A stretch of 64,000 bases of DNA from assembly GCA_051294905.1 (NCBI GenBank), contig CM119371.1, forward strand, positions 8,000,001-8,064,000, written 5' to 3'. Positions 19,401 to 63,778 of this stretch are shown in pieces; positions within the stretch are counted from its first letter, which is position 1, and every line of letters begins with the position of its first letter. The notes beneath the pieces are model-generated. The model was not told the DNA's origin and ran no database searches. It saw only the letters and a list, made by a program, of their open reading frames with translations. A program made the position numbers and the translations under genes. The DNA comes from Botryllus schlosseri (taxonomy: Eukaryota).

Positions 19401-21336
19401 CCGTACTTTTAAAATGCTGATTTCTATCTCCAACATTGTTTCATTTGCAATTCAGTAATTCGTCTCATCCCTAGTTAGTTCGGACTTTAGACTAGTTAGT
19501 TCCGGATTTTCAAATGTCGTTAGTTCAAGTTACAGTTCTAGCTGCTCATTTTGAAAATACAGAAGTTTGTAAAATTTACCTGCAGATATTTACATACTGG
19601 CAGCCTACGTACTGCTATAAGTTTGAGGCGGTGGTTCTTGATCATAGAACAAAAGATCAATATATAACTAAGCTATCATTACAAGTTAACGTCCGACAAA
19701 ATCCGTTAAATATCGAAATTTACTTTCGCGCAAAACGAGAACGACGAGGTTTGCTACATGTTTTAATGAATGTAGTATTTATTAAACTTCGTGTCAATGA
19801 ATTGTACTTAATTTTTGGTGGCGAAATGCCCTTAATAATACTACCGTCATGCGAGCTCGGGTTATTTTCCACAAAATGTCCGAACTGGGTATTGTATCCT
19901 GCAGCACACATCGTGTCGAAATGGTAGAGGCATTGTACCACTTTTGAGAGTCAGAGCTCATTGTACACGAAATATGATTTGAAGATTCCTGGTCAAAATG
20001 ATAGCTAAGTAGACTTGTATTTGAGAGCTACTAAATCAAATCGTCAGAATATTTCTTTATCATATCATAAAGGATGCTATCTATCGTTTAGTGTTTTGAC
20101 CCACAGCCTCACATGAACGTTTTATAATGTAGGTTGCCTTGTTCGGAATAAATTCATGTTGAATTTAATAACTAGATGTATTGCTAAATTCAATGTTAGC
20201 AAAGATCTCTACCCCATTGTGAGTTGATTAACTAGTCACACAGAGCATAAAAAAATTGCAATACAATTAACTTCCACATACTGCCAATAGATGTTAACCA
20301 GATGGTATGAGCCAGTGCCCGATGGTTATTACAACGACGTTGACTTGATCCCGGATATAGCAGGCTTTTTTGTTTGTTTGTTTGATATTCACGGTGTTTC
20401 GTCTACATTGGTAATCCCAGTGTTGGGATGACTCGAGTCACCTTTTCCGTATGACTTGACTTGACTCGAGTCACTTTGCTAAAATAACTTGTCTTGACTT
20501 GACTCGACGTATGTATCAGAAATGTGGATTGACTCGTGACTCGGAGCAGAATTCGACATCACAAGTAAGCAAGCCCATTAATTTAACGAAAGAAGACCTT
20601 GAAATGGAGGAGATGGAAGGAAAACACCATAGAGTTCATTGGCACAAATCTCTATAGTCTCTTGAACTGGCACGTTCGTGAATAAACTAGATATATCAAA
20701 CGAACACATAGAGATATCGGACACATCGAAATCAACATTACGAATGGTATCAGCAAATGTGAACGAGTCACGAATTCAGTCGCAACAATGTGAGTGACTG
20801 ATGAAAATGGCGTTCCAATTGAGTGCTAAATAATTCCAAGTGTAGGTTCGTCAATTTCACGCTCGGGTAGGGAAATTTATTTTAACTGACCATTTCTATC
20901 GGGGTACCTTGAGTGATTAATAATTTATTGGTTATTTGGGGTTATTGTACGGATAAGTTACGGACTATCAGTATGTTTAATTGATTGAAATAGAGTGTGC
21001 CAAGCGGTCGCTCGAGACAGCTATATTTCTGTCGTTCAATTCTGGTGCCACTCAAACGACCGAAACGACAGTTTAAAATGTGTAACTAAAGTTTTTCATC
21101 CAGATCAGCTGTCGGGTAGTTGATCTAGACCAGTCGGGATCTGAATTATTTGACACCGGATGAGAATCACTTTTCAAATACCTACATATAACACAGAGTA
21201 AATGTATATGTATGAACATTGAATACTATGGGTGAATCCGCGTACAGCTCTGCTAGGTTGTCTGTACTAGCGAATTTGAGGACTGTCTGTTTTGATTATG
21301 ACCTATATATGACTTCTCGCGCTGGAGCCACCCCGC

Positions 21337-21830: not shown

Positions 21831-21904
21831 TAACCAGATCTGGTCTCGAACCAGCAACATTCGCGTTATTAGCACGACGCTCTGACCAACGGAGCTGACC
21901 GATC
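21831..21904 (-). tRNA. tRNA-Ile(AAT), degenerate (likely pseudogene)
   Basis: Minus strand GATCGGTCAGCTCCGTTGGTCAGAGCGTCGTGCTAATAACGCGAATGTTGCTGGTTCGAGACCAGATCTGGTTA. Anticodon arm intact; acceptor stem is mostly G-U pairs or mismatches. Confidence 0.65.
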
Positions 21905-22091: not shown

Positions 22092-22164
22092 AGTTCCGTA
22101 GTGTAGTGGTCATCACGTCTGCTTCACACGCAGAAGGTCCTGGGTTCGAGCCCCAGCGGAACTA
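22092..22164 (+). tRNA. tRNA-Val(CAC)
   Basis: 73 nt. Acceptor stem AGTTCCG/CGGAACT, anticodon arm TCTGC-TT CAC AC-GCAGA, GGTTCGAGCC T-arm, TTTTT terminator at 22175-22179. Confidence 0.92.
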
Positions 22165-22211
22165 CTTCTAACTATTTTTATAAGGTATGTAGCGTTTAAT
22201 CGCATCGCAAG

Positions 22212-28911: not shown

Positions 28912-29935
28912 ACGCATTTTATCTTGAAGCAGGGCAATCGGCAGATCAACCTGTGAGCGAATTTTACCTTGAAGTTTAAACGTTGTATGGAAGTCTCAAG
29001 TGGAACGGAATCAGAAAGTTGCTCCGTATCATTCTTGAATCCGAAAAGTGTTTAACGTTCAATAAAACAATTGGGCTGAGTAATCATGTTGCTATTGTTC
29101 ATGTAGCTGTTGGGGCTAAATGCTAAGCTGCGATATGCTGGATATGTATATATCGGGGCCAAATTTTCCTTAACATGTTCTAAGATAAGACATTTATGTG
29201 GATAAAAAAATAAAACTTAGACGTGATCATCTCAATGCCAGCTGACTAAAATACTATGTGCTTGTACATGTACATTAATCACGTGTGTATTTCATATGTA
29301 GTCTTCGATTCGGTTAGTTTAGGACGTAGGTCGATATTGAAATAAGCAGTGATGTAAGGATTTTGTGGTACCACTATAGCAGTGCTTCTCGAGCTGGAGG
29401 GCGTGGCAGCAGCTGAAGGGGGCGCAAAGCTCTGGTCAACCGATTCTCTCTTCGCGCTTTGTCCGATTTACCACCGATCTATGAATTCGCTCCGTGTATG
29501 ATCCGAATTTTATGTTTGTGAATTCTCTTATCAACAGTAATAACTGGGGCAAGCTTTCGTTGCACTAAAGTCGCGAGAAAGTTGCATTTATTATTAGCAA
29601 CAGTTGCATTTATAATTTGTGTTGAATTTTTAGGGTATGAGATACTCGAAAGGTTCCGTTATATAACCCAGTCCCCGCAGACTTGTCAAATTTGTTACTT
29701 TATTGTCACTTAACGAACGGTCTGGCGAAGCCGCCAAAATTACATTTTTACCGGCACATAGCGAGGAAATTATGCAATGCGGGAATAATTTCCCTTAAAA
29801 AGCCAAACAGCATAGCTGTAACCCCTTCCCCTAAAACAAGTCAAATACCGCACCTCAAATCCCCTAGGTCAGCAAACTTTATCCAAGGCGTCGCAGAGAA
29901 ACTCACTCCTGGCGACTTTAACAAAATCTATAGCC

Positions 29936-30234
29936 CAGTGGTTCTCAACCTTTTTTTAGACACGCCCCCCTTTTTGATAGTGAAAAATTTCGCGCCCCCC
30001 TTATCGTCATATCACAAAATCCAACTGGGATGCTAGCAACCCCAACAGATTGTTTGGTGGTCTGGACGGTTATGAATGTTGATGATAGAATCAAAGTATA
30101 TGAAATTGGGTATATGTAGACAGAAACACGCTCGTATAGAAGGTAAATCGCGCAGAGCGCGAAAATTTTTTTCAGGTGACCGCTTCTTCGCGCCCCCTTC
30201 AGATGTTTCACGCCCCCCAGGTTGAGAACCCCTG
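29936..30234. mobile_element. hAT MITE nested within a related MITE (29380-30863)
   Basis: TIRs CAGTGGTTCTCAACC/GGTTGAGAACCCCTG. The uninterrupted host counterpart is at ~47329-47626. Confidence 0.8.
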
Positions 30235-30923
30235 CATAGACTAATGTGACCCAGCGAAAATGTAATTCTTGGCGGTCCCGCCTGGGCGTTCGTGAAATGA
30301 GAAACTACCTCAAATTTAAACGACGGTATCAATAAAGCGATCGATTTACATATTGTTCGAACACGGTCGTGCTTGGCAGGGTAGTTGAACTTTTTGCTTG
30401 CAAGTCATTGTGTCATAGATAACAAAGTGAGATGCAGCTAACCATCATATAACTCTTTGTTATGCAAATCAAAGAGAATCAAAGAGAATCGAAACATACT
30501 AGAAACAGTTTATAGCAAGTTTTTAAATAACTCCATTACATTTTGACGCAATATTTGATAAAAGTTGGAGTAAAAATTGGAATGAAAAATAGAGAAAAGT
30601 TGCAAAAATTTGCACTATTAAATCCCTCCAAACACCTTAAAACATCATAGTACATAGAATCTGAGTATCTAGGAAGCTGTAGGAAGCTGTAAAAAAGTTT
30701 CAAATGTTGCAAAAACTTGCCCTAGTAATAACTTTCCATGTCATCAAACTACTCTTCAAGATTGCTAGCATTCTGGTCTCAATTTAGGATATGACGATAA
30801 GGGGGCGCTAAGATTTTCACTATCATAAACGGGTGCGTGTCCAAAAAAGTTTGAGGACCACTGAACTACCGTATTGAACATCACTGAATTAAGGTCAGCT
30901 TAGACTTGAACTTTATTCTAGAC

Positions 30924-31110
30924 CAGTGGTTCCCAACGTGGGCGATACCACTCCCTGGTGGGCGATATTGCGGTCTGGGGGGCGAAAATCACGAAGGATG
31001 CGATGGGCGACAGTTTGTATGGAAATTTTTCGGTTCACAATGTTTGGGGGGAGATGATCGGTGTGGAGCTTGAAAAGAGGCGATGAGTCGAAAAAGGTTG
31101 GGAACCACTG
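30924..31110. mobile_element. hAT MITE
   Basis: TIR CAGTGGTTCCCAAC; perfect TSD ttctagac. Confidence 0.92.
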
Positions 31111-31273
31111 TTCTAGACGCTGGTAATATGCATGATTTCGGGGCCGACATCTCGATTTATTAGTCAAGCAAATCGAGTGTAGGTGACTGGTTTTTGTGTG
31201 TTCTCGGAAAGCCGTATCAGCTTCTGCGTCGGGATCACCCACACTCACTATGGAACTGGATGTGTGTTCTCAC

Positions 31274-33055
31274 TAGAGTTTGATCAATTGTAGTTTGTAA
31301 TTAGGCTGAATTTAATTAATTACATTTTTCATGTAATTGTAGTTGTAATTGTAATTTAAGCATTTCTATTTTGTGTAATTTTAATTGTATTTGTAATTTG
31401 ACCAAAATTTTGCTCAATGTCAATCTCAATTACATTTTCATGGAAACCTGACAATCACAATAAAAAATAGCTATTTAATCAATCATTTATTCGTCGCACC
31501 AGTGAACATCCGGTATGAACCAGGATGACGACGAGGGGCTTTAAGGCCTTAGTAAACAGTCACCACATGTAATAATTAGCCTATTTACATCGGTGTTATA
31601 TGCATGCTGCGTTATAACTAGATAATTCAGTCACGCTAAAATGTTTCCCATACTTCAGTGGCAACATAGAAAACTTTGTGAATTACAATATAGGCTAAAC
31701 CAGGGGTTCTCAAACTGGGGGCGTGTCCCATTGGGCGGCGTGAAAGCATCTGAACGGGGCGCGACGGTCCAGTGACCTGAAATCTTTTCCGCGCTTGGCC
31801 CGATTCACCTCCGTTTTATGGTTATTGCTCGGTGTATAGTCTGAATTTCGTATTGGACAATTCTCTCGTCAACAGTCATACCCTTCCATACCATCAAACT
31901 ATATGTAAGGATTGCTAACTTTCTGGTTTCATTGTGTGCTATGACGATAAGGGGGCACGAAATATTCTCTGTCATGAAGGGGGCGTGTCTAAAAAAGTTA
32001 GAGAACCAGTGGGCTAAACTAAATCTTAATATTTCAAAAATGGATGAGCAGCAAATAAACTCTTCTGAAACCTGTGCTGAACCATTTCCTACACCACGGT
32101 CAAAGTTTTTTTTTTTTTTTTTTTTATCTCTGACCAGTACCGAGGCTTGTTCCAACAATAGCAAAAAAAAAAATTCACGTTTCCACCCAAGGCTTCATCA
32201 AACTTGATCACGCATTTGTAGAGATGTTATCCCAATCTTACCTCCAATCTTGACCAAATTTACTGGGGCCAGAAACTTTTCGCATCCTAATGTTCATCAA
32301 ATGCAATCGAACAGCTTCCGAGCAACTGAAAATGTAAATGCGAACCAAAATATTGTAATTCTTAGTTGTCAGGAGGTTAAATCCTTTTGCATCTATTTTG
32401 ATTTTACGCAACTTATCGGTATCATCCTTATCGCTGACGCCTTACCAATTAGATTTCATTATCCTGACTAGATGACCTCACGGCCGTATCGCAACTCCGC
32501 CGTCAAAGCATCTCGATGGTGCAGGCAAAAAAGAATATCATATCTCTCATTGCACATTCAACATTCGACAAATAGAAAAAAATGACTCAGCTCTGAGTAG
32601 CCTAATCGTTTGATTACATTTCATTGACTGTCCTGTAGCCTATTCGCTGCTAGTCAGTCAAACCTGTGGTTCTTAACAGTCGCTTGAAACATTTTTCTGT
32701 GCTTGTAGTTTTCAGTACTCATGATTAGGAATAGTTCGAATACGTTCGAGTTTTTTTTAATTATAGGGTATTCTACATATCAGGAATGGAACATGAATAG
32801 CTTGAGATTGTTGCTAGTACGTCGCTACGGTTTTCAAAGAACGCCTCTTTACTGAATCAATTACCTGTTTAAAAGTAATTGTAATTGTAATTATAATTGT
32901 AATTAAATACACATTTAGCAGTAATTGTAATTGTAATTTTAATTGTAATTTGATATTTTTAATATTGAGTAATTGTAATTGTAGTGTAATTGAAACATGC
33001 AAGGAAGTAATTGTAATTGTAATTGAATTAAAATATTGTAATTGATCCAACTCTG
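31274..33055. mobile_element. hAT-like element with (TAATTG)n subterminal arrays; contains nested MITE 31701-32011
   Basis: Ends TAGAGTTTGATCAATT/AATTGATCCAACTCTG; perfect TSD gttctcac; empty site at ~47836 in the duplicate. The inner MITE has TSD ggctaaac. Confidence 0.9.
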
Positions 33056-34244
33056 GTTCTCACCTATCCTATGTATCGTTAGATGCCTTGTTACTTCGAC
33101 ACATTGCTTCAATCGTCTCTAGTGTTGCAATTCTGATGAGAAGGACTGCGAAATTATGTTTTGTGTTAAATTATTACGAATTAAAATGAACGCATATGTA
33201 TATTATCTGTTATATAATATACCCGTCTCCACGATGTCTTCACCTGTAAATGTTGACCTAGCTGAACTTAAGAAAAGATAGGCTTACGTGTACGAAGTTT
33301 ACTGACAAATATACTACAAGCTCGAAAAAGATAATCGTCCAGAACAGAGCTAACGCGAATCCTACATACACATAATCCCGCATCTGTGCCATATAAAACA
33401 ATTAAATCAGTCAACTGATAAGATACGCCAGTAATCAAAGCGTCCACAAAACATCAAGAATGCTCAAAGACAAGATCGACTGCAAATTATATAATGTGGA
33501 ATGAGTAATAAAATGTGTAGCAGACATGCAGGTTCATGAGCGGAACACACTTTCCTACAACGATAGCATAATAGGCCTATAAGCCGTGGAATCTCCTGGG
33601 CTCCGTAGATTGCGGATCACCTGGGGTCTCTGCTATTTCTATGCCCTAGCTATAAGGGAAAGTCAAAATGTTTTGCATTTCAAGCGAAATAGGGTCAGAG
33701 GGTACAAAACTTTAATGGCCCAATTAACATTATATCGAATTTCCAAATTATTAGACATTGAGCTTTACTACTGACTTTCTTCGGGAGCAAATGTCAGAAA
33801 ATTCTATCAACCTTATTCGAAAATAGAAATAAAATAAAAATAATCTTGTCGTTGTGACGTAATGTCAAGTACTCGGAATCTCGAACGACATATAAGAAAG
33901 CAAAGTTACAATATTATAAAAGGGAAATTCGTCTTCAAAATAAACGATTATATAATGGTTGATTCACGAACCTTCAAATGAAAAAAAGTGAGCCACCACG
34001 ACCAACTATAGGAAACTGATTTACGTTATAACATTTGGCACGTTCAGCGTGTTTTAGGAGTTGTTGCCCGAGGTCAGCTCTGATGAGAATCAGCCGAAAA
34101 GCATAGAGTGGAATAAATGTAGCAATATGAACATATTTATGTTGGGAAATCCAAGTTAAGAACTATATGCAACTATATTGTTCACCATGATGGGCTGTAT
34201 ACGGTTTCTCAATATTACACAAAGTTGTTATCCCCCGACGAAAA

Positions 34245-35085
34245 TCAAGTAGATACTTTTTCCGACTTCAGCACATCTCTAATGCGCTTGACAGTCGCAA
34301 TATCCACATTGCGAAGATCAAATGACAACCATTCCCCATCAAACGTGAGACCGGTGTTTTCCGTGACAATTCGAGACACCCGCAGTAGCATATCTCGGTT
34401 TTTAACTCGCGACAATCTCTCCTGTAACCAACGCAATTGATAATACAATTCCTGTGGAGTTTGGGACAGTGATGATGCCTGCAGTATATCGATTTTCACC
34501 GATGCAGTATCTTCTTCGTCCATGTTCAATGGCGCTTTGCCCATCTTCGAGGCCAACTCTTCGTTTTTCATAGTTTGATTTCTGTCCATTGCACCCTTCG
34601 ATGTGGACTGGCGCTGCGATACGAGCTTACACCTTTGAACACTGGAATCTCTAATCTTGACAAACTTCATCTTCAAACCACCGAACTCGCCTGGCGAAGT
34701 TTTAGGTTGAGTCGCAATCATCCAGATGGCAGATTCATGTTTCGCCTTCTTGTAACTATCGCTTCCCATATCTGCGTGCTCAGACCTGTTGTGCGGTCTT
34801 TGCTTCAATTTTTCTTCGGACGCGACTAATCTTTTCTTCACCGCAGGTATCTCGCATTTACTGGTGTCGGTCTTGGCTGCAGTTGTCGATAGATGATGAC
34901 AACTTCATCTTTCTTGGTTTATTTGTAATACTTTGCAACGCAGATTTTTGTACTGATCCTGGTTTCAAGTTTTCGTGACTGAGCTCCTTAAACTTGGCCA
35001 TCCTATTCGCGGCATGTACAAAGTCTTTCGGGTTGTGACCACGATGGACTTTTGGGCGACACGGGAGTACCGCCATATCTTCCAT
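34245..35085 (-). pseudogene. Frameshifted paralogue of the AF9/ENL-AHD gene (probable pseudogene, or sequencing error)
   Basis: ORFs 34858-35085 and 34245-34841 are consecutive parts of the 49009-50406 protein. A +1 insertion near 34883 (GACAACTGCAGCC vs GACATTGCAGCC) breaks the frame. The AHD itself is intact (QELYYQLRWLQERLSRVKN...SFDLRNVDIATVKRIRDVLKS). Confidence 0.8.
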
Positions 35086-38000
35086 TCTTGCCTTATTTAT
35101 GGGAGCGTTCCGCCGTTGCTACATCCACAGGATTCTCGGTTGAAGTGAACATTCAGCAGACTATATCCCATTTGCTATACTGTAGCTACACGTGATTTAA
35201 TTCGTTATCAATCTTTCTTCGTTCTTCCTGCTCTCGTTTCAAAGGCCCGCAAATTTGAGTACGTGAAAGCTGGTAGGAACGAACATAGGCCGGAAGCTCT
35301 GTAGTATAAATATATGCTTAACACCGACTGTCGGACTTGCTATCGGCCTAACAGTACGGTCGGGCTTCCAAATAGATAACCTAGAAACGTAAATTAATTT
35401 CTTATCAATTAGAATAACGCAGAGCGACAAAATAGACAAGGATGTCTGGTCATGTCTAGATATCGCCGAATATAGGTCATCTACATTTGTGCGTCGATAA
35501 TACAAGTTTAAGCAGGGAGAGACATAAGATTTACTTTGTGAATTAAAACCAAAATCGTTCATTTATGGTACCGTCATTGGCGAATCCCGATACGCATGCT
35601 TTTTTAAACCAGACCCCATGTGACTTCTTCCTGTAAAGGCATTGTAATTGTGGACATGGATTAGAAACATATGTCTTTATTATTGCGCTCATCAAGTCAG
35701 CATTCATTATAACAAATAGGAAATGTGCTAGCGTTAGGTTCATGTTCGCCTCTGTTGCAGACTGCAGATACGCTTTTCCCTTATCTGTATTGGACTAAAC
35801 GATCAATAAATTAAATATTCCAGATTGATGTTGACAGTAGCTCCTTTGCGACAATGGTTCTTAAACTTTTTAGTCCCTATCCTCACGCATCAAAAATAAC
35901 ACATTTTAATGCGATGCTACGTTATACGTTCATGTATGACATAGAGAGTGAGCAGACAACAGTTGGTCGCAACGCAACTCTACTCCTTGTCGCTACGACA
36001 TCTTCCTGTCATTTCATTGTATCGCATTTTTGTGGTGTATTGAACTGATAAAATTGCTAATAAACCAATGATGATGATGAACTCTATATGTAACATGTCT
36101 GACACATGCTAAATTGACGTGTATCATTCTCCTCTGCAGGTAGCATTTGTACTATTGTCTACTCAAATTGCAAGGGCGGGAATATTCGGTGCCAACCCTT
36201 TTGACATGACTGTGTGCTTTAGGCGATGATATGCCGACCATCGAGACATCATGGGCAAATTCCTAGTTTTTCATGACTCCGCGGGCTGCAGCATCAATTT
36301 AGGGTTATTCAATGTTTAATTTTCAAGTAGGCCTTATTTGACGAGACCTTGCAGACAGGAATTCCACAAACACCGTGGAAATGTAATTTACTATTGTACT
36401 GTTCACGCTTGACAGGAAAAAAATCACATTTTCAAATATTTCAATAAAATTGTTTTTGTGTCGGGCCTAATTTTTTTTTATTCAATGAGATATAGACATC
36501 ATGCGAGTAGATGTATCATGACATTGTAGAGCTGTCGGGTTATATATTGCAGCTAGTGGACCTATGACGTGCCACAATTTCATGTAGAATAATTTAAAAT
36601 CTACTGAACATTGATCTGGTATCGGAGCATTTGAGCGGTGTAGCCTAATCCTGATTTTGATATGGTCATGATAAGCATCGGCTATTGTTACTTTTATCGC
36701 CAAAGTCTAATTAAATCAGCGTTAGATTTTGCCTTCGATTATTATTATTGGAACATATCAATACCAAATTCAATATAATCAATTTTGAGCAATAGTAATA
36801 GTATTGCTTCTTATCCTTTTTAGCGATCGTACCTTTGTGCCTACAATAAGATTTTTCTTAGCCCCTGTTCATTTTCAACACAATTTCTAATGATACATAT
36901 ATTAGAATCGGAAAGCCAATTCACATAAAATCGTGCGCAGCGCGAAGACTATTTTCCAGTTAAATAAATTGGCCTCGAAAAAATTCCACAGCATTTAGGC
37001 CTAATTCCACAATTCATCGCGTACACCCTGGTGTGGTGCTTCGTACCCCGATGGGGTCTACGGACCCTGGTTAAGAACCCCTGAAATTGAAATATCCAAC
37101 CGATGTGAACATGGATAATGAGAGCTAACAATACCCAGCATGTAACCAACTATACGTCACGGGAGTCTCGTGGTCTCAACGTGGGCGAACGAGGTTGGGG
37201 ACCACTGTTATGGACCCTACGATACGCAAGCTACAACCTTTCGATATATTACTACTCCCCATGTCAGTTTCATATATTGTTGCATGCGTAGGATTACTAA
37301 ATCACCGTTCCGAGTCGCAAGTCATTCTCTGATTTCAACGTTTGACCCGAATCTACTTAATTCATTTTTATTTAATCACCCAGTCAATCCGAAAACTAGT
37401 AATTTTACGAGAAGATCGCACCAAACCAAATTACAATTTTCAGTCACGAATCATCAATGGGTCATGTTTTATCATCATGCACTAGAAATGTGACGTAAAA
37501 GCTGATCTTCTACCGCATGGTAGCTTTTAAAAGTGATATGATGGTGAAGTTTGTTGAGATTTCAGTGATTTCCATAGTAGTTTTAGAGTGAACTTTAAGT
37601 TCTTATACCTGAGAAAGATATGTGGAACTTGAATATATATTGTTGGATTCTTGAAATTCCAAAATGCCTTCGCGGACCGCACAAAATGCTCTCGCGGGCC
37701 GCGTGTTTGACACCTCTGCACTGAAGTTTGATCTTTCGAGGATTCCCCAAACCAAGAAATACCAAGTTCAAATCGCCTGCGTCTCTCTAATCACGGGTGT
37801 TCTAGGACGTTTGAGCGATTTCAATAAAAAGCTCAACACAAATTCACGCCCCAATATGTAGGCCTACGGAATCGAAAAAGATAACATATAAACGGGAATT
37901 ATTTTCACCTGACTCTGATCGTTGGCGAGTTAACTAAAAAAGGTCATTTGTCCGAGACGTTGCTCGGAAACCGGTTTCCGCGACTACTTTCTTTTGGATT

Positions 38001-41000
38001 GACCTTTTTAATAGTCAATTTTCGCGTTATATGGATAATATGCCGTTCTCACGTGCATTTCTGGTCATAATCATCAACTATATCTCACTGGATATTCTAA
38101 CATTTTCGCGACCCAATTGCACGCTTTGATATTGTGCCCCCTTGTTTCTCGAAATCGCCGACTGGGGGCGTTATCGCCGACGTTGGGAACCAGTCGTTTA
38201 TACCGACAATCCTGAGGGAAGCTCAAGAAATAACAACATGTAACAAAGTGATTAACGAAACCGGAAGATGCGTCATCATTAGTAATTTTGTGAACAATAT
38301 TTTCGACGACACCCCGTCATCAGCTCTGTCCGTTTTATTATTTGTTTAAATTGCAACAATGGAACATGGCCTCCACCCCATAAAGCAAAAGTTTGGCGCC
38401 TTGTTGACACGTTGCATGAGCACTGCGTGTTTGGTTTTGTTCAACTTATCGTTGTGAATCAATCAGCCTTTTGGGACATGAACTTCATCAAAAACAAATA
38501 CAGAACACGCCTCACTAATGCACTTGCACATCTGGAACATTCAATCAGAGTGAAGTGTCGAGTTGCATATCAGAGCACAGCGCACTATAGTTGATAGCAT
38601 GCAATGCCAGGCCTCTCACACACTGATATAGAAACAGATAACATGCCATCCACTGTCCAGTCTGAAATGTGACATGATTTATTTTATAATTTGAGTTGAC
38701 TCTTGATATGTAATTTATATAAACATGGTGCGAAGTAATTCATGATTTATTTAAAAAAGATGTTTTGATTTAAAATACTTTTTTTAGAAGTCTTACCGCA
38801 ATGTGACTTCTGCCTAGTTATATGAATATCAAAGCGGGAATTAGGTCTAATACGGGTAAATTGCGGGAGTAAATGGTAGCCCGCCGCTTCAAGCAGCTCC
38901 CAAGGAGTAGCTCTTGGTTGCAAAAAAAGGTTGGTGACCTCTGCTCTATATGTTACCGAAATGCGGCCATGAACGTCTATACCAATCTGCCATTTGTCTG
39001 CGCGGATTACACTGGTCAACACAATTTTTGTTGACTTTGATCAGACAATTGATTGTGACTAACTTTTTGGCGCTGAATTCAGAAATTACTTCCGTTTTTC
39101 TCTATAACGTCAAGTTTTCGAGTTAGGCAACCCCACATTGCCTCAAAATCCACATAATAGCACTACTTCTAATATTTTGTGTTTATTTTATAAAACGTTT
39201 CAAAAACTACAACCTGTCGAAATCAATCAATCAATCGATCAATCAGGTTTATTAATATTTTTATCGTTTCAAAACATCACAAGACTGCGATACAATGAAA
39301 AGATAGTAAGGTGTCGAAACAACTTGGAGTACCTTTAAGATCAGACACCCACCTTAGCCTAGGCGAAGTAAATAAGTAAATCATTGGACCTCAAATAAAC
39401 ATTTGCACTGTTTTATTTGGTTGATTTAAACTGATATTGCTTGTACAGGACAAATAAAGTGCGAGTTTCAGGGTCCAAATCTACGCTAATAACCTATAAT
39501 TCTGTAGGTTATCTAGTTTGATACTCGAGCAATAGTCAGCTAACATATGTAAGCTCCAATCTACTCTGGTATCTTTATCCCCATCATCTTCAGATGTTGG
39601 GGGACATTTTCTCCTTGACCATCTCTTACTATGTCAAGGTTTTCAGGGAAGTTAATAAAATGTTTTAGTTATTTTTAAATGTATGCTGTCGGATATAAAC
39701 ATAGGGCAGTGGCACATGTGTACCAGGGTTGCATGTGCTGTGCATCCTTATTGTCTGAAAAACAAAGAAAGCACAATATTTAAAAGCTGACACATATGAT
39801 CCTATCGTGCTCGTAATATTGCAACAATTGTATGTTTCTGTATAGTTCTCAATGTTTCTGTATTATTCACGAAGACTAACTGAGTGTGCAATTGTTACTG
39901 CACCCAAGACGTTGGCATTCTGGACAATACCACACTTTACGATCCTTTTTGAGCTACCTATAGGCATTTGCCATTCTCTCTTGAGTTCTAAATCGGGATT
40001 CCTAACTGCTCCGGTAATCCATGGTTACAGTATAATGCCAATACCAGTATCACGACAATACAAAAAGCTACTGAAAGTAGGCCGACAAAGAAAAGGCCGA
40101 TTGTCCTGATCGAAAGTGAGATACCTTCTGTACCTTGTCAAGTAATCTTTTCTCACTTCGTAAGGATGTTAAAAGTTCCGAAAATTTCTATTCCAAGTCC
40201 CAAAGCGTATCAATAACTTGTGCTGGTGGACAACTCTACATTCTTAATCATCTTCGATTTAAAAATCTACATCATTAGGCCTACTATCCTAAGATCTTCA
40301 TCTTGTTCCAAATTATCGAGCATATAGCAGTTTAAAGTTGCACTGGATAAGCTGAATTGGGCATTGGACCTATACAGCTGATAGTAATGTAATGTTCATT
40401 TTTCTTGCCATATCCTGCAGATTGCATCAAATATGTGTGTGAAATATCCTCGGATGGTTGCATCCTCTAACCAAAACAGGGAGAAAGCATCGGCCCAGAT
40501 CAGACCTGGGCAAAGTGCGGCCCACGGGTCAAATGCGGCCCGCGGAGCTATTCTGACCGGTCCGCGTGCCCGTTTCTTCAAATTCAAAACATAGAACCTA
40601 CTTTTGAATACTGCTGCGTGGAATAAAACCCTAAGCTGCATAAACTGAGCCGGAACGGAAATTGGTTTACGTTGAAGCCTGCTCCCAATATGCCGCGATT
40701 GCCCAGCCTACGTCCCTCGCAATCTCGCATGCGTTATCCAGATTCAATATAAAGCCAATGGAGCAAAGTATGTCGTAACAGTTGAAGTCACAATAGGTCA
40801 TCTTTCCATATAGCTTAGTTCAAACCTTGTTGCCTTGTTGCCATTGCCACATTACGCATTATACGGCATGTGCTTCAAATGCTTCGTAATTGGCTACGTT
40901 TCGAAATACTATGAGACATCATCATCCCAGGGATATCTCAAATTTTCATGTCGGAAGCTGAAATGCAAGGACGGTATAGAGCACTAAACACATGGCCGCA

Positions 41001-47268: not shown

Positions 47269-47270
47269 GT

Positions 47271-50200
47271 TTAGGACGTAGATATTGGAATCCGCAGTGA
47301 TGTAAGGAATTTCGTTGTACCACTATAGCAGTGGTTCTCATACTGGGGGGACGTGACAGCAGCTGAAGGGTGCGAAAAGCTCCGGTCCGCCGATTTGTTT
47401 CCGCGCTTTGCCCGATATACTTCCGATCTATGATTTTGCTCCGTGTATGATCCGAATTTTGTATTTGTGAATTCTCTTATCAACAGTCATAACCTTCCAT
47501 GTCGTCAAACTATCCTTTGAGATTGCTAGCGTTCTGGTTTCAATTTAAGATATGACGGTAAGTGGGCGCGAATGTTTTCACTGTCATAAAGGGGTATACG
47601 TGTCTAAAAAAGTTTGTGAATCACTGCACAATAGTATTGAACAACACTGGATGAAGGTCAGCTTAGATTCGGACTATATTCTAGTTAGACGCTGGTAATA
47701 TAATGATCTCGGGGCCGACATCTCTATTTATTAGTCAAGCAAATCGAGTGTAGGTGACTGGTTTTCGCATGTTCTCGGAAAGCCGTACCAGTTTCTGCGT
47801 CGGGATCACCCACACTCGCTATGGAACTGGCTGTGTGTTCTCACCTGTCCTATGTATCGTTAGATACCTTGTTATTTCGACACATTGCTGCAGTCGTCAG
47901 TACAGTGGAATTTTTTGTGAGAAAGACTACAAAACGATGTTTTGTGTCAAATTATTACGAATTGATATTAGCGCATATGGATAATATCTATTATATAATA
48001 TACCCTTCTTCTCGACGTCTTCACCTGCCAATTTTATCCAAGCCTAACTGTATAAAAGATAGGCTTACGTGTACGCAGTTTATTGAGAATTATACTACAA
48101 GCTCGAAAAAGATAATCGTCAAGAACAGAGCTAACGCGAATCCTGCATACACATAATCCCGCGGCTGTACCATATAAAACAATTTGATCAGTCAACTAAT
48201 AAGATACGACAGTAGCCTAATCAAAGCGTCAACAGATTATCTAAAATGCTCAAATACAATATCGACTGCCAAATAGCCAAAACGCAATATATAACGTGGA
48301 ATGAATAATAAAATGTGTTACAGACATGCAGATTCATCAGCGTAACACACTTTCTTACAGCTAGACGCATTACATGCCTATCGGCCGTAGTAGGATGCGG
48401 ATCATCCGGGGTCGGAGCTGTTTTTATGCACCAGCTATATAAAGTCGAGTCAAAATGTTTCACATTCCAAGCAATATAGGGTCAGGAGATACAAATTTTT
48501 AATAACGCAACTAACAATATATCGAATTGTCAAAGTATTCGACATTAGATTTTTCTACTGACTCTCTTCAGGAGAGAATGTCAGAAAATTCCATCAACCT
48601 AATTCGAAAATAGAAATAAAATAGAAATAATCTTATCGTTGTGACGTAATGTCAAGTACACGGAATCACGAACGACATGTAAGAAAGCAAAGTTACAATA
48701 TTATAACAGAGAAATTCGGCTTTAAAATAACCGATTTTATAATGGTTGATTCACGAACGACCACGAGCTACTACAGGAATCTGATTTACGCTATAACATT
48801 TGGCACGTCCAGTGTGTTTTAAGAGTTGGTACCCGATAGCAGTTCTAATGAGAGTCAGTCGAAAAGCTTAGACGTAAATAAATTTGGCAATATGAACACA
48901 ATTTATGTTGCGAAATCCAAGTTAAGAACTATGCAACTATATTGTTAACTATAATGAGCTGTATCCGGTTTCTCAATATGACACGAAGTTGTTTTTCCTC
49001 GACTAAAATCAAGTAGATACTTCCTCCGACTTCAGCACATCTCTAATGCGCTTGACAATCGCAATATCCAAATTGCAAAGATCAAAGGATAAACACCCTC
49101 CAGCAAACGCACGGCCGGTGTTTTCCGTGACGATTCGTGACACCCGCAGTAGCGTATCTAAGTTTTTAACTCGCGACAATCTCTCCTGCAACCAACGCAA
49201 TTGACAATATAATTCCATCGGAATTTGCGGCAGTGATGATGCTGGCAGTATATCGATTTCCACCGATGCAGTATCTTCCTCGTCCATGTTAAATGGCGCT
49301 TTGCCCATCTTCGAGGCCAGCTCGTGCTTTTTCATGCTATGGTTTTTGCCAATCACACCCTTCGATATGGACTGGCGCTGCGATACGAGCTTACACCTTT
49401 GTATATTTGAATCTCTAGTCTTGTCAAACTTCATCTTCAATCCACCGAACTCTCCTGGTGAAGTTTCGGGTTGAGAAGCAAGCACCCAGATGGCTGAATC
49501 ATGTTTCGCCTTGTTGTTACTCGCGCTTCCTGTAGTTGCGTACGCAGACATTTCTTGCAGTCTGTCCTTTAATTTTTCTTTAGATGCGACTAATCTTTTC
49601 TTCGCCGGAGGTACCTCGCATTTGGTGATATCGGCCTTGGCTGCAATGTCGATAGAAGTTGACAACTTCCTCTTTCTTGGTTTATTTATAATAGTTTGCA
49701 ACGCAGATTTTTGCACTGATCCTGGTTTCAAGTTTTCATTATTGGGCTCCTTAAACTTGGTCAACTTTTTCGCAGTATGTACAACATTTTTGCCAATCAC
49801 ACCCTTCGATGTGGACTGGCGCTGCGATACGAGCTTACACCTTTGTATATTTGAATCTCTAGTCTTGTCAAACTTCATCTTCAATCCACCGAACTCTCCT
49901 GGTGAAGTTTCAGGTTGAGAAGCAAGCACCGAAATGGCTGAATCATGTTTCGCCTTGTTGTTACTCGCGCTTCCAGTATTTGCGTACGCAGACATTTCTT
50001 GCGGTCTGTCCTTTAAATTTTCTTTAGATGAGACTAATCTTTTCTTCGCCGGAGGTACCTCGCATTTGGTTTTACGCGGTCTGTCCTTTAATTTTTCTTT
50101 AGATGCGACTAATCTTTTCTTCGCCGGAGGTACCTCGCATTTGGTGATATCGGCCTTGGCTGCAATGTCGATAGAAGTTGACAACTTCCTCTTTCTTGGT

Positions 50201-53200
50201 TTATTTATAATAGTTTGCAACGCAGATTTTTGCACTGATCCTGGTTTCAAGTTTTCAATATTGGGCTCCTTAAACTTGGTCACCTCTTTCGCAGTATGTA
50301 CAACATCTTTCGGCTTGTGACCACGATATACTTTTGGGCGACACGGGATTACCGCAATATCTTTCATCCTTGCCTTATTTATGAGAACGTTCTGCAGTTG
50401 CTGCATCCACAGGACTCTCGGTTAAAGTGAACATTCAGCAGAACATGTCCTGGTTGCTATACTGTAGCTACATAGGAGATTTAATTCGTTATCAATCTTT
50501 CTTCGTTTTTCCTGCTCTCGTTTCAATGGCGCGTTGATATCATAGTGATTGCAGATTTGAATACGTGAAAGCTGGTAGGGGCGAACGTATAGGCCGGAAG
50601 CTTTGAAATATCAATAAATGGTTATCACCGTCTGCCGAGTTGTTATGGGCGTAACAGTAAGTGCGGGCTTTCAAATAGATAATCTAGAAACGTAAATTCA
50701 TTCCTTATCATTTGGATTAACGCACAGTTACTAAATAGACAAGGATGTCTAGTCATGTCTAGACATCTCCGAATATAGGTCATATACATTTGAGCGTCGA
50801 TAATACGAGTTTAGGCAGGGAAATACATGAGATATATTTTGTGGATTGGAACCAGAATCGTATACTTATGGTATCACCATTGGCGAATCCCGATTCACAT
50901 CCTTTTATTAGACCAGACCCCATGTGACTTATTCCTGTCAAGGTATTAAAATTGTTGACATGGATTAGAAAAATATGCCTTTATTATTGCGCTAATCAAG
51001 TCAGCATTCATTATAACAAATAGGAAAGGTGCTAGCGTTTGGTTCATGTTCGCCTCTGTTGCTGACTGCAGATACGCTTTTCCCTTGTCTGTATTGGAGT
51101 AAACGATCACGAGTCAATTTCAACGAACTCGGAGCAAAATTCACGAGTCAATTTCAAGTCATCAAGTAATCGGTGTCGATAAAAATCATTGTATCTTGCA
51201 TATGGTCGGATTGCTCGCGAAACGCTCGTGTAACCCGTGAGAGCGACTAATCATTCAATGTTCAATATTGTTTTTTCCCAAATAAAGTGACCGCAAACGA
51301 AGTGATCGAAGCTTATAGCTTACGATCTCGTAAACTAGTATAGTAAAGTAATTTAATAGTAAAATGTATATTTTTGTTTTCTGTTCTTACCTTAACAAAA
51401 CCTCTTGGTTTATTGAAATTGACTTCGAATATAGTTTATAGTCATCAACCATTGGCGCAGGCTCGAATGTATAGTGCATCTTATCAATTCGTTTCGCTAT
51501 TCTCTATTTTGGCTGGTAACTATAAACTGAGGCTATGCAATTATTACGTAGTTTAGCAGTTCTACGTACAAGTGAGCGATACAGCGTCTTCTTGCGTGTA
51601 TATTTAACTCTATATTCGTTCATTGGTTCAGAATCAATGACCACTCAATCTTTATTACAGACAGCCAGCAAAATGCAATGACATAATCATGCCTCATAGG
51701 CTACTTCGTGGGCGAACGAGGTTGGGGACCACTGCCACCTACGCAACGCAAGCTACAACCGTTCGATATATTAATACTCCCCATGACAGTTTCATAGATT
51801 GTTGCATGCGTAGAATCACCAAATCACCGTCGCAAGTCCTTCTCTGGTTTTAACGTTTGACCCGACTCTGGTTAATTCAATTTTATTTAATCACACAGTC
51901 AATCCCAAATCGAGTGATTTTACGAAAAGATCGCACCAAAACCAATTACAATGTTCAGTCACTAATCATCAAAGTGTCATTTTTATCATTATGAACTAAA
52001 AATGTGACGTAAAAGCTGATCTTCTACCGCATGGTAGCCTTTAAGTGATATGATAGTGAGGTTTGTTGAGGTTTCAATGATTTTATAGTAGTTTTAGCGT
52101 GAACTTTAAGTTCTTATCTCTAAAAAGATATATAGAACTTAAATATTTTGTTGAATACTTGAAATTCCAAAATGCCGTCGCGGGCCGCACAAAATGCCCT
52201 CGCGGGCCGCGTGTTTGAGACCTCTGCACTAAAGCATGATCTTTCGAGAATTCTCCAAGCCAAGAAATACCAAGTTCAAGTCGTGTGCGTTTCTGTAATG
52301 ACGGGTGTTCTAGGATGTTTGACCGATTTCAATAAAAAGCTCAACACAAATTCACGCCCCAATATGTACGGAATCTAAAAGGATGACATGTAAACAGGAA
52401 TTTTTTCACCTTACTCTGATCGCTGGTGAGTTAACTAAAAAAGGTCAATGGTCCAAGACGTTGCTCGGAAACCGGTTTCCGCGATTACTTTCCGTTGAGT
52501 TGACCATTCTTACAGCCAACTTTCGCGTCATATGGATAATGAACCGTCTTCACGTGCATTTCTGGTCATACTCATTTAATATATCTCACTGGATATTCTA
52601 ACGTTTTCGCGACCTTATCGCACCATTTGACATTTTTGCCCCCTTCTTTCTCTAAATCGCCCACTGGGGGCGTTATTGCCCACGTTGAAAACCAGTCGTA
52701 TATACCGACAATTCTGAGGGAAGGTCAGTAAATTACAACATGCATCAAGGTGATTACCAAAACCGGAAGATGCGTCATTAGTAATTTTGTGAACAAAATT
52801 TTCGACAACACCCCTCCATCACCTCTGTCCGTTTTATTATTTATTTAAATTGTAACACTGTTATATGGCCTTCACCTCAAAGCCCACCAGGCTGCAGCAA
52901 AAGTGTGGTGCCTTGTTTACAGGGTGTATGCGCACTGCTTGTTTGGTTTTGTTCAACTTATCGTTGTGAATCAATCAGCCTTTTCGGACATTAGTTTCAT
53001 CAAAAACAAATACAGAGCACGCCTCACTAATGCACTTGCACATCTGGAACACTCAATCATAGTTGCATTGTCAAGTTACATACCAGAGCACAGCGCACTC
53101 GTTGATAGCACGCAATGACTGGCTTCCCACGCACTGATATAGAAACTGATAACATGCTATCACTGTCCAGTCTAATGTTTAACATGATTTATTTTAAAAA

Positions 53201-53544
53201 CTGAGTTGACTCTTGTTGTATTATTTATACAAACCTGGTGCGGAGTAATTCATGATTTATTTAAAAATCTTAGTGGCGAGCTAGTTGAAATGAGATGTTT
53301 TGATTTAAAAGACCTTTTAGAAGTCTTAACGCAATGTGATTCCTGCCCAGTTCTATTAATATCAAAGTGGGAATTAGGTCTAGTACGGGTAAAAGACGGG
53401 AATAAATGGTAGCCCGCAGCTTCAAGCAATTCCCAAGAAGTAGCTCTCGGTTGCAAAAAAGGTTGGTGACCCCTGCTCTATATGTTACGGAAATGTGGCC
53501 AAGAACATCGATAAACCTGATCTGTCATTTTTCTGCGCGGATTA
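47271..53544 (+). repeat. Segmental duplication copy 2 (contains the intact AHD gene)
   Basis: Colinear with 29319-39009; begins immediately after a MITE terminus at 47268. Confidence 0.9.
49009..50406 (-). CDS. Intronless AF9/ENL-like protein: basic low-complexity repeats plus C-terminal ANC1-homology (AHD/ET-like) domain, no YEATS domain
   Basis: 465-codon ORF; the true start may be the Met at 50367. The C-terminus ELYCQLRWLQERLSRVKNLDTLLRVSRIVTENTG...LSFDLCNLDIAIVKRIRDVLKS matches by eye the AF9 AHD pattern (L..L..RL......L..IV..IEETG.......FDFDLCSLDKTTVRKL..YL). NLS-like PPAKKRL x3 and KPRKRK x2. Confidence 0.85.
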   Translation of the reverse strand: MQQLQNVLINKARMKDIAVIPCRPKVYRGHKPKDVVHTAKEVTKFKEPNIENLKPGSVQKSALQTIINKPRKRKLSTSIDIAAKADITKCEVPPAKKRLVASKEKLKDRPRKTKCEVPPAKKRLVSSKENLKDRPQEMSAYANTGSASNNKAKHDSAISVLASQPETSPGEFGGLKMKFDKTRDSNIQRCKLVSQRQSTSKGVIGKNVVHTAKKLTKFKEPNNENLKPGSVQKSALQTIINKPRKRKLSTSIDIAAKADITKCEVPPAKKRLVASKEKLKDRLQEMSAYATTGSASNNKAKHDSAIWVLASQPETSPGEFGGLKMKFDKTRDSNIQRCKLVSQRQSISKGVIGKNHSMKKHELASKMGKAPFNMDEEDTASVEIDILPASSLPQIPMELYCQLRWLQERLSRVKNLDTLLRVSRIVTENTGRAFAGGCLSFDLCNLDIAIVKRIRDVLKSEEVST

Positions 53545-54029
53545 TTGATGCATCATCTTTAACTGAAACGTGACCAATTCCGACATTGAGCGCAAATGAT
53601 AGGGATTTTGACGAATAATAACCACAACCAATGATGTAATAAAGTGGGTACTAAACTTAAGGCGCGACCCATATCTGAGTTTAATGTCATCTTTCGACCC
53701 AAGAGTCACACATAGACATGAATGCACTTCCAATGCTCGTATGCTACGAACGGGCTTGTATGGAATAGAGAAGGTTCAGGCAACCAATTGTACGCATCGC
53801 AGCTCTATGAAACATAATTTGTTGATCTAGCGAGGTTGATGTCACATGACATTTATTTTTCGTAATAATATATATACACGACTCGTTTCTACTTGGCTTT
53901 ATGCTCAGATCAACGGTTTCCCAACTTTTTCTATTCATCAACTCACTGCAGGGGTTTCCAAACTTTTTCTATTCATCAACTCATTGCAGGAAATCAATGT
54001 GTAAGCTCGAGAGACAGGGAACCCTGCTG

Positions 54030-63705: not shown

Positions 63706-63722
63706 GCCGCGATAGCTCAGTC

Positions 63723-63761
<39 letters not shown>

Positions 63762-63778
63762 AATCCCGGGTCGCGGCA
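63706..63778 (+). tRNA. tRNA-Phe(GAA)
   Basis: 73 nt with a full cloverleaf: GCCGCGA/TCGCGGC acceptor stem, TCAGA-CT GAA GA-TCTGA anticodon arm, GGTTCAATCC. TTTT terminator immediately downstream. Confidence 0.95.

Follow-up and report, generated by a model that had tools for sequence, protein, structure and literature searches.

AF9 and ENL couple the reading of histone acylation, by their YEATS domain, to the recruitment of the super elongation complex and DOT1L, by their ANC1 homology domain (AHD). Can an AHD work as a protein of its own, apart from the reader? This question is raised by an open reading frame, which we call copy A (49009-50406, minus strand), in the tunicate Botryllus schlosseri. 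Copy A lies in a stretch of 64,000 nucleotides (assembly GCA_051294905.1, contig CM119371.1, positions 8,000,001 to 8,064,000). We refer to this stretch as the window and to the contig as C1, and coordinates without a contig name are positions in the window. A first-pass annotation, made from the sequence of the window, had described copy A as an intronless AF9/ENL-type AHD protein without a YEATS domain and as a possible retrocopy. Our reading, to which we give a probability of roughly 0.55, is that copy A is possibly a functional member of a lineage-restricted and mostly decayed family of stand-alone AHD genes, and that its product is probably a nuclear adaptor or competitor that lacks the reader and has an altered specificity.

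The frame itself is as the first-pass annotation described it: 465 open codons from ATG to TGA in a single exon, with an in-frame stop just upstream (Table 1). From stop to stop it spans 470 codons, and no other frame among the window's 17 of at least 120 amino acids is as long; the runners-up encode 219 amino acids (its own paralog, copy B) and 180 amino acids. The start that is conserved in the family is the second methionine, M14 (MKDIAV, 50365-50367), which would give a protein of 452 amino acids. M14 aligns with the first methionine of P0002, a related protein from another data set, and with the MEGIVV and MDGVVV starts of two other family members, L018 and L022. Copy A, L018, and L022 all have a stop codon upstream of this methionine, which corresponds to the place where P0002 begins.

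That the C-terminal domain is an AHD of the AF9/ENL type, as had been proposed, is confirmed by Pfam and by both sequence and fold comparisons to the Protein Data Bank (PDB). The copy A protein matches the Pfam model of the AHD (PF17793) with 32.3 bits (E = 1e-7), and the gathering cut-off is 27 bits. Copy B (33 bits) and P0002 (35.5 bits) are also above the cut-off. Neither BET (the ET domain, PF17035) nor YEATS is among the eight Pfam families that match the copy A protein at E ≤ 1. A profile of the family's AHDs has five distinct matches in PDB at E ≤ 1, and all of them are AF9 AHD constructs (the best is 2mv7_A, E = 0.0039). A phmmer search of PDB with the whole copy A protein found no matches at E ≤ 1, and the ESM Atlas contained no usable match for copy A.

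We also modeled the last 97 residues of copy A with AF2, using a 12-row alignment. The model (mean pLDDT 79.1) has three helices and a short hairpin. The top three Foldseek hits for this model are AF9 AHD entries; their E-values are weak (0.06-0.2) because the domain has just 70 residues. With VIA-align, the model superposes best on 8tlx_A (Z = 9.4, rmsd 2.2, 69 aligned residues) and 2mv7_A (Z = 8.8, rmsd 2.4, 68 aligned residues). The ET domains of BRD4 (Z = 8.0) and yeast Taf14 (Z = 7.9) have the same small fold, with BRD4 and Taf14 entries spanning Z = 8.0-7.2, and unrelated folds have Z ≤ 4.3. ET domains are reported to bind a partner strand in the same mode as the AHD (PMC11094776). As judged from the model, the domain of copy A has the AHD/ET fold, and it belongs to the AHD sequence family. 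An origin from the ET domain of BET proteins or Taf14, which the first-pass annotation had kept as an alternative, was dropped in view of the Pfam results and the PDB matches of the family profile, which are to the AF9 AHD alone.

As to the missing reader, a YEATS profile has 10 matches in the 495-Mb assembly. None of these are in the window, and the nearest one on C1 is at 28.497 Mb. We also scanned 77 of the 81 frames of at least 85 amino acids in the window against Pfam; the other four are the copy A frame and three antisense frames within it. One of the 77 frames contains an AHD (copy B), one has a sub-threshold match to PTEN_C2, and 75 have no matches. None of the 77 contain a YEATS, transposase, reverse transcriptase, or integrase domain. 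The earlier statement that there is no YEATS exon nearby therefore holds. If we ask of an AF9/ENL ortholog that it have an N-terminal YEATS domain in the same protein, then copy A is not one.

The genome does contain a canonical AF9/ENL-type gene, at C1:28.494-28.497 Mb (we fetched C1:28,493,500-28,498,500; L039). It is a single frame of 892 codons that encodes both a YEATS domain (96.6 bits) and an AHD (47 bits). It lies 20 Mb from copy A and on the same contig as all of the AHD-only loci described below. Human MLLT3 is reported to have 11 exons (PMC11947615), in contrast to the intronless canonical frame of B. schlosseri. Since the coding part of the canonical gene is itself intronless, the lack of introns in copy A is not evidence of retrocopying. 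The retrocopy-like origin that had been suggested is not supported as worded: the parent is uninterrupted, and the likeness to it is confined to the AHD. Over the aligned AHD stretch, copies A and B are 32-34% identical to the canonical copy. (Similarly, P0002 is 32% identical to P0003, a canonical-type protein, over 72 residues.) By eye, neither a poly(A) remnant nor a target-site duplication is evident in the 3' flank of copy A; given how dissimilar copy A is from its parent, it is too old for such remnants.

To place these proteins, we built a maximum-likelihood tree from 21 AHD stretches (99 columns), in which the deeper order is unresolved. All 11 AHD-only rows, P0002 among them, cluster together, and a long branch (length 1.73, support 100/100) separates them from the canonical-type rows. 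Within this cluster, P0002 joins copies A and B (support 92/91). Finding the YEATS-containing gene and building a tree were both checks that the first-pass annotation had proposed.

Copy A is one of a family rather than a lone gene, which the first-pass annotation missed. Searching the genome with P0002 gave 23 matches, all on C1. After merging the pieces and removing the canonical gene, there are 18 family loci, including copy A, in two clusters (8.03-8.87 Mb and 23.16-24.32 Mb). The AHD profile alone matches seven places in the genome, of which five are over the cut-off (copy A has 35.9 bits). The closest paralog, copy B, lies in the partner of a segmental duplication whose existence had already been noticed (Table 1). 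Copy B is a pseudogene with its AHD frame still open (219 codons, 34248-34904), and it retains the equivalent of M14. In comparisons of copy A to the more distant family members, alignable DNA was limited to 89-337 bp that code for the AHD (67-77% identity), and there was no common flank. This argues for constraint on the AHD and against a mobile element.

Outside of this genome, we searched a collection of 5.8 billion proteins, and the sole match to copy A was P0002 (48% identity, E = 2.4e-68). P0002 is an intact protein of 328 amino acids from one Logan contig of 1864 bp; it has one copy of the N-terminal unit, and the AHD is its only Pfam domain. P0002 is probably from another species, because its best match in this genome is just 55% identical. 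Among 1.84 billion representative proteins, a profile search found 10 proteins at E ≤ 0.001; the profile included the N-terminus of P0002 (323 positions), which probably blunted it. Three of the 10 have both YEATS and AHD, and seven have an AHD without a YEATS match at E ≤ 0.001. (By eye, one of the seven, P0007, has a degraded YEATS start.) YEATS-less AHD predictions thus exist elsewhere, under no name, and may be partial gene models. We found no shorter relatives of residues 340-465 of copy A among 11 candidates, and no relatives of L018 among 1,764 candidates. Two of the representatives, P0008 (806 amino acids) and P0011 (827 amino acids), have a C-terminal AHD (63 and 78 bits) and, by eye, GRGRPRK motifs that resemble AT-hooks. 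These may be another YEATS-less AHD architecture, or incomplete models.

The remainder of the copy A protein is a disordered, lysine-rich region in which a unit that contains RKRK and KKR motifs is repeated. Residues 1-368 are 16.6% lysine (22% lysine or arginine). Besides two RKRK motifs, the region contains PAKKRLV three times (at residues 94, 119, and 267). We take RKRK and PAKKRLV to be similar to nuclear localization signals, and to this extent the lysine-rich region with such signals, as it had been annotated, is upheld. Motifs like RKRKLSP are also present in P0002, L018, L019, L020, and L022. The unit of about 150 residues is duplicated in frame within copy A, with spacings of 444 and 519 bp (148 and 173 codons). 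Within this duplication, a 75-bp repeat (25 codons) carries the second PAKKRLV. One contig from X1, a sequencing run that is labeled "RNA?", joins 50000 to 50076, so it is missing one copy of the repeat (50001-50075); the 75-bp repeat is an in-frame length polymorphism. We treated X1 as DNA, as it covers the non-genic flanks at an equal low depth.

Is the AHD maintained by selection? We fit a codon model (GY+F3X4) to the AHD stretch of 10 family rows. The resulting omega of 0.505 is an average across the family, including the branches of pseudogenes, and forcing omega = 1 costs 15.3 units of log likelihood (twice the difference is 30.5, 1 degree of freedom, p = 3e-8). We also computed dN/dS by the Nei-Gojobori method from 81-102 aligned AHD codons, and 53 of the 55 pairs of 11 rows gave a value. 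The ratio was 0.17-0.50 in 52 pairs and 0.523 in one further pair; higher values were found for L030 versus L031 or L036 (0.60-0.63) and for L031 versus L036 (0.99). Between copies A and B, the AHD has dN/dS = 0.33, with changes at 19 of 224 nonsynonymous sites as compared to 16 of 70 synonymous sites (Fisher p = 0.002), and the part that precedes the AHD has dN/dS = 0.55 (p = 0.039). The AHD part of the family is under moderate purifying selection.

Which partners might the domain bind? The core of strand beta2 and the following turn (FDLCxLD) is retained in copy A: the equivalents of AF9 D546 (D442 in copy A), L547, C548, L550, and D551 are all kept, and S549 is replaced by asparagine. D546 and S549 are described as conserved hydrophilic residues of the AF9 AHD, D546 as a highly conserved one (PMC11094776), and D544 and S549, like D546, have described roles there (PMC11094776, PMC8022399). 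At the position of D544, the family has serine (8 of 11 rows of alignment A1) or threonine (3 of 11), and the genome's canonical copy has aspartate. In AF9, D544 is reported to contact the DOT1L peptide, and D544R to abolish binding to both DOT1L and AF4 (PMC11094776, PMC8022399). The hairpin of the AHD is also remodeled in the family. Given the change of D544 to serine or threonine and the remodeled hairpin, we predict a shifted partner preference.

The ligands of the AHD are reported to share the consensus LxVxIxLxxV/L, which is found in AFF1/4, DOT1L, BCOR, and CBX8 (PMC8022399). In this genome, there is a gene with a DOT1 domain on contig C6 (C6:9.086 Mb), with many small exons, and there is an AFF gene, from a match to AFF4_CHD, on C15 (C15:11.115 Mb). 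The model of the AF-4 N-terminus had no match in the genome, and the control for that model was also silent everywhere. AF4_int, a model of 15 positions, had five matches, none of them above the cut-off. The pattern L.[VAI].[IV].[LIV]..[VLI] had no match in 20 kb of sequence upstream of the AFF4_CHD exons, and the AF9-binding motifs of the DOT1 gene were not located in a search that covered 10 kb downstream.

We propose that the AHD-only family has an ancient origin in the C-terminal domain of an AF9/ENL-type gene, and that local DNA duplications later expanded it on a single chromosome. The RKRK and KKR motifs suggest that the product would be imported into the nucleus. By itself an AHD is disordered, and if the domain of the product behaves like that of AF9 or ENL, it would fold around a hydrophobic beta-strand of a partner. 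Because the product has no YEATS domain, it would not be anchored to acylated histones, and its most likely action would be to bind AHD partners away from that anchor. It might be a competitor of the canonical protein, or it might be an adaptor that takes partners elsewhere via its basic region. Nuclear location, partner binding, and competition are what we infer for copy A.

The closest known analogs are the human YEATS-devoid isoforms s-MLLT3 (of AF9) and the corresponding MLLT1 (ENL) isoform, which are reported to be made from internal promoters (PMC11947615, PMC13169612). As in copy A, the AHD is kept and the YEATS reader is gone, and the same partners would be expected without the reading of histones. 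However, those are isoforms of the canonical genes with native AF9 or ENL sequence. Copy A belongs to a separate, old, and fast-evolving gene family with an unrelated lysine-rich N-terminus and a change at D544. The canonical AF9/ENL proteins, including this genome's copy, share with copy A the Pfam AHD, the same predicted fold, and the FDLCxLD core, and here both are single frames; they differ in having YEATS, in their AHD sequence, and in their place in the tree. The leukemic fusions MLL-AF9 and MLL-ENL are another case of an AHD that lacks its own YEATS domain and is carried by another targeting part (PMC8022399), but they are somatic chimeras with the N-terminus of MLL1, and copy A is encoded in the germline and joins its AHD to a basic repeat of no named family. 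P0008 and P0011 resemble copy A in having a C-terminal AHD and no YEATS match, but they are on the canonical side of the tree, have the full FDFDLC motif, and carry the AT-hook-like motifs. Our literature search turned up no publication that deals with a free-standing AHD gene or with AF9/ENL in tunicates. What sets copy A apart from the human isoforms is that the reader-less form is a separate gene family.

The main rival is that copy A is a silent relic. On this view, it is a recent duplicate from a birth-and-death family, it makes no protein, and its frame has stayed open by chance and because of its youth. We consider this to be on the unlikely side but a serious possibility, and several results favor it or otherwise weigh against a functional gene. 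Ten of the 18 loci have stops within the match. As judged from the frames that we read, just two of the 18, copy A and L018 (C1:23.382 Mb, 366 amino acids from MEGIVV), have both the conserved start and a complete AHD, so the other 16 are without the conserved start, an entire AHD, or an open frame. (For instance, L022 has the start and a truncated AHD, and L020 has no in-frame N-terminal part.) Even in L018, the AHD scores 17.6 bits, which is under the Pfam cut-off, and copy B, the direct neighbor of copy A, is broken. The N-terminal part is neutral: across the first 79 codons, copies A and B have dN/dS = 0.91 (Fisher p = 0.49), and L031 versus L036 is at 0.99 even in the AHD. Of the 12 coding differences listed between the window and the X1 contigs, 7 are nonsynonymous and 5 synonymous; the aligned stretch has 12 further differences beyond those listed. 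The internal duplication is very recent (97-98% identity), so the long frame is partly young. Copy A is not listed among the matches to its own search, which may mean that a predicted protein for it is missing from the large collection. Also, with D544 lost and the hairpin remodeled, binding to the classical partners is not assured. Finally, three bulk RNA-seq runs with the same species label, of which we read about 6% (X9 and X12) or about 13% (X13), have zero depth across 48000-51014, which includes the entire copy A frame, and no run that is on record as RNA contains this stretch. The zero depth weighs against broad, high expression and has little bearing on expression that is limited to some stage or to the germline. 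On the other hand, copies A and B have diverged to dS ~ 0.28 over the AHD, and A has kept its 465 codons open while B has gained a stop and a frame change. The AHD is constrained (omega = 0.505, and p = 0.002 for A versus B), P0002 is intact in another data set, and the 75-bp polymorphism keeps the frame. We prefer to view copy A as a possibly functional stand-alone AHD gene.

Could the frame instead be the last exon of a larger gene, with YEATS or other exons further upstream? In tunicates, trans-splicing and first exons at a distance are common. But the TAA is five codons upstream of the first ATG, L018 and L022 have the same stop-then-methionine arrangement, and that methionine is the first residue of P0002. 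The YEATS profile also has no matches in the window, nor does it have any on the contig within 20 Mb. Of the flanking frames, 75 of 77 have no Pfam domain; the other two are the AHD of copy B and the sub-threshold PTEN_C2 match, which is 30 kb away on the opposite strand. We consider a larger gene to be highly improbable. The least probable explanation is that a mobile element captured an AHD and carries the family as its cargo. The many copies, many of them broken, and the abundant repeats just upstream of copy A (51015-52421) would fit with this idea, but all 18 loci are in two clusters on one contig, distant copies share the AHD-coding part and no flanking DNA, and the frames scanned in the window contain no transposase, reverse transcriptase, or integrase domain. 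We dropped a mobile-element origin given the lack of common flanks and of element domains in the scanned frames.

If copy A is a functional gene, then a chordate relative with separate AHD-only genes beside the canonical gene would be a natural separation-of-function experiment, in which the reader-less form could be removed or added without touching the canonical gene. Whether the AHD acts alone in normal cells is a recent question, raised by the human YEATS-devoid isoforms (PMC11947615, PMC13169612). The changed D544 and the remodeled hairpin could also reveal the residues that set partner choice in a domain that is a drug target. If copy A is silent, the family would still be a clear case of birth-and-death evolution of a chromatin-factor domain.

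The family might also carry its own ligand strand. The most conserved N-terminal block of each unit is EF..L.[MVI]K[LF].K (alignment A3), and in copy A it contains LKMKF, a partial match to the ligand consensus. The version in L020, LNIKLHKSVL, has four of the five consensus positions. In an AF2 model of residues 300-465 (mean pLDDT 54.5, and under 50 for the first 85 residues), the sole strands are LKMKF, ASVEI (with low confidence), and the AHD strand CLSF (beta2). When this model was aligned to 2lm0_A, an AF4-AF9 chimera, using VIA with trimming off (Z = 6.6, 84 aligned residues, model residues 21-166), the alignment began at chain residue 760, just before the AF4 motif, and the LKMKF strand of the low-confidence model superposed on the AF4 peptide; entries with the AHD alone align over about 70 residues. 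We view this as a weak hint of a self-ligand strand.

We also considered another candidate, the segment ASVEID[IV]L, which lies about 10 residues before helix 1 of the AHD. Its S, V, and I are invariant in all nine rows of alignment A3, and a pattern search finds no other fully alternating hydrophobic stretch in the copy A protein, P0002, or L018. By eye, the canonical-type proteins P0003, P0004, P0006, and P0007 have similar segments before the AHD, which suggests that this one is an ancestral extension of the domain. We dropped ASVEIDIL as a pseudo-ligand specific to the family, as canonical-type proteins share it and it forms no strand in the confident 97-residue model.

The genome also encodes YEATS-only genes of the AF9 type: five in tandem at C7:25,208,031-25,254,333 (L010-L013 and one more), one at C8:26,443,804 (L014), and one at C10:24,653,858 (L015). 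Those on C7 are single frames of 232-290 codons (four have 289-290), and the other two are 226 and 324 codons long. Identity to the canonical YEATS region is 34-50% for L010-L015, as compared to 35% for the GAS41-like gene on C15. A Pfam scan of L011, L014, and L015 found YEATS and no AHD. By eye, these genes have N, D, or H at the position of the aromatic-cage tyrosine of AF9, which we take to be Y78. A pattern search of the tails of the YEATS-only proteins found no canonical AHD-ligand motif. As a more speculative and rather doubtful model, the AF9/ENL modules may have been split into expanding AHD-only (C1) and YEATS-only (C7, C8, and C10) families. In this model, each unit of the AHD-only proteins would carry its own AF4-like strand (L-x-[MVI]-K-[LF]), and these proteins would be self-capped, or would join head to tail as multivalent reader-less hubs, and would modulate how AFF and DOT1L reach the canonical protein.

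Table 1. Copy A, its parts, and related features of the window.
Feature	Position	Strand	Details
Copy A coding frame (P0001)	49009..50406	-	ATG at 50406, stop TGA 49009-49011, 465 aa
In-frame TAA	50422..50424	-	5 codons 5' of the first ATG of copy A
AHD (ANC1 homology domain), aa 402-458	49033..49203	-	Pfam PF17793; three helices and a short hairpin
Strand beta2 and turn, S440-F-D-L-C-N-L-D447	49066..49089	-	Corresponds to AF9 D544-F-D-L-C-S-L-D551 (HMM and family alignments)
ASVEIDILPASS (aa 380-391), alternating-hydrophobic segment	49234..49269	-	About 10 residues before AHD helix 1
LKMKF, repeat unit 2 (aa 323-327)	49426..49440	-	Partial match to the AHD-ligand consensus
LKMKF, repeat unit 1 (aa 175-179)	49870..49884	-	Same motif
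RKRK, NLS-like basic motif	49666..49677 (aa 244-247); 50185-50196 (aa 71-74)	-	
In-frame internal tandem duplication of the N-terminal unit	49343..50310	-	About 150 residues; very recent
75-bp (25-codon) tandem mini-duplication	50001..50145	-	Includes the second PAKKRLV; TRF
Segmental duplication block with copy A	47269..53544	.	Partner at ~29317-39009, 82-85% identical
Copy B, one-unit paralog	34245..35124	-	Stop at codon 2, frame change near 34885-34892

All of the RNA-seq reads that were placed (178, 56, and 79 in the three runs) lie on repeats upstream of copy A, at 51015-52421 and 53226-53426, and nearly all of them run into unlike sequence. The X1 word depth over these repeats is hundreds to about 16,600 in most bins, and 48-141 at 53025-53627. 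These repeats are elements with many copies, which are transcribed from somewhere in the genome.

Elsewhere in the window, there is a weak tRNA-like match at 21831-21904 (minus strand; 30.3 bits, barely above the cut-off and not called by ARAGORN), and there are genes for tRNA-Val(CAC) at 22092-22165 and tRNA-Phe(GAA) at 63706-63778, both on the plus strand, with 67-69 bits. The sub-threshold match to PTEN_C2 (19.5 bits as compared to a cut-off of 27.1, E = 8e-4) is in a frame of 143 amino acids at 19496-19924 (plus strand); this frame could be one exon of a gene similar to PTEN or tensin.

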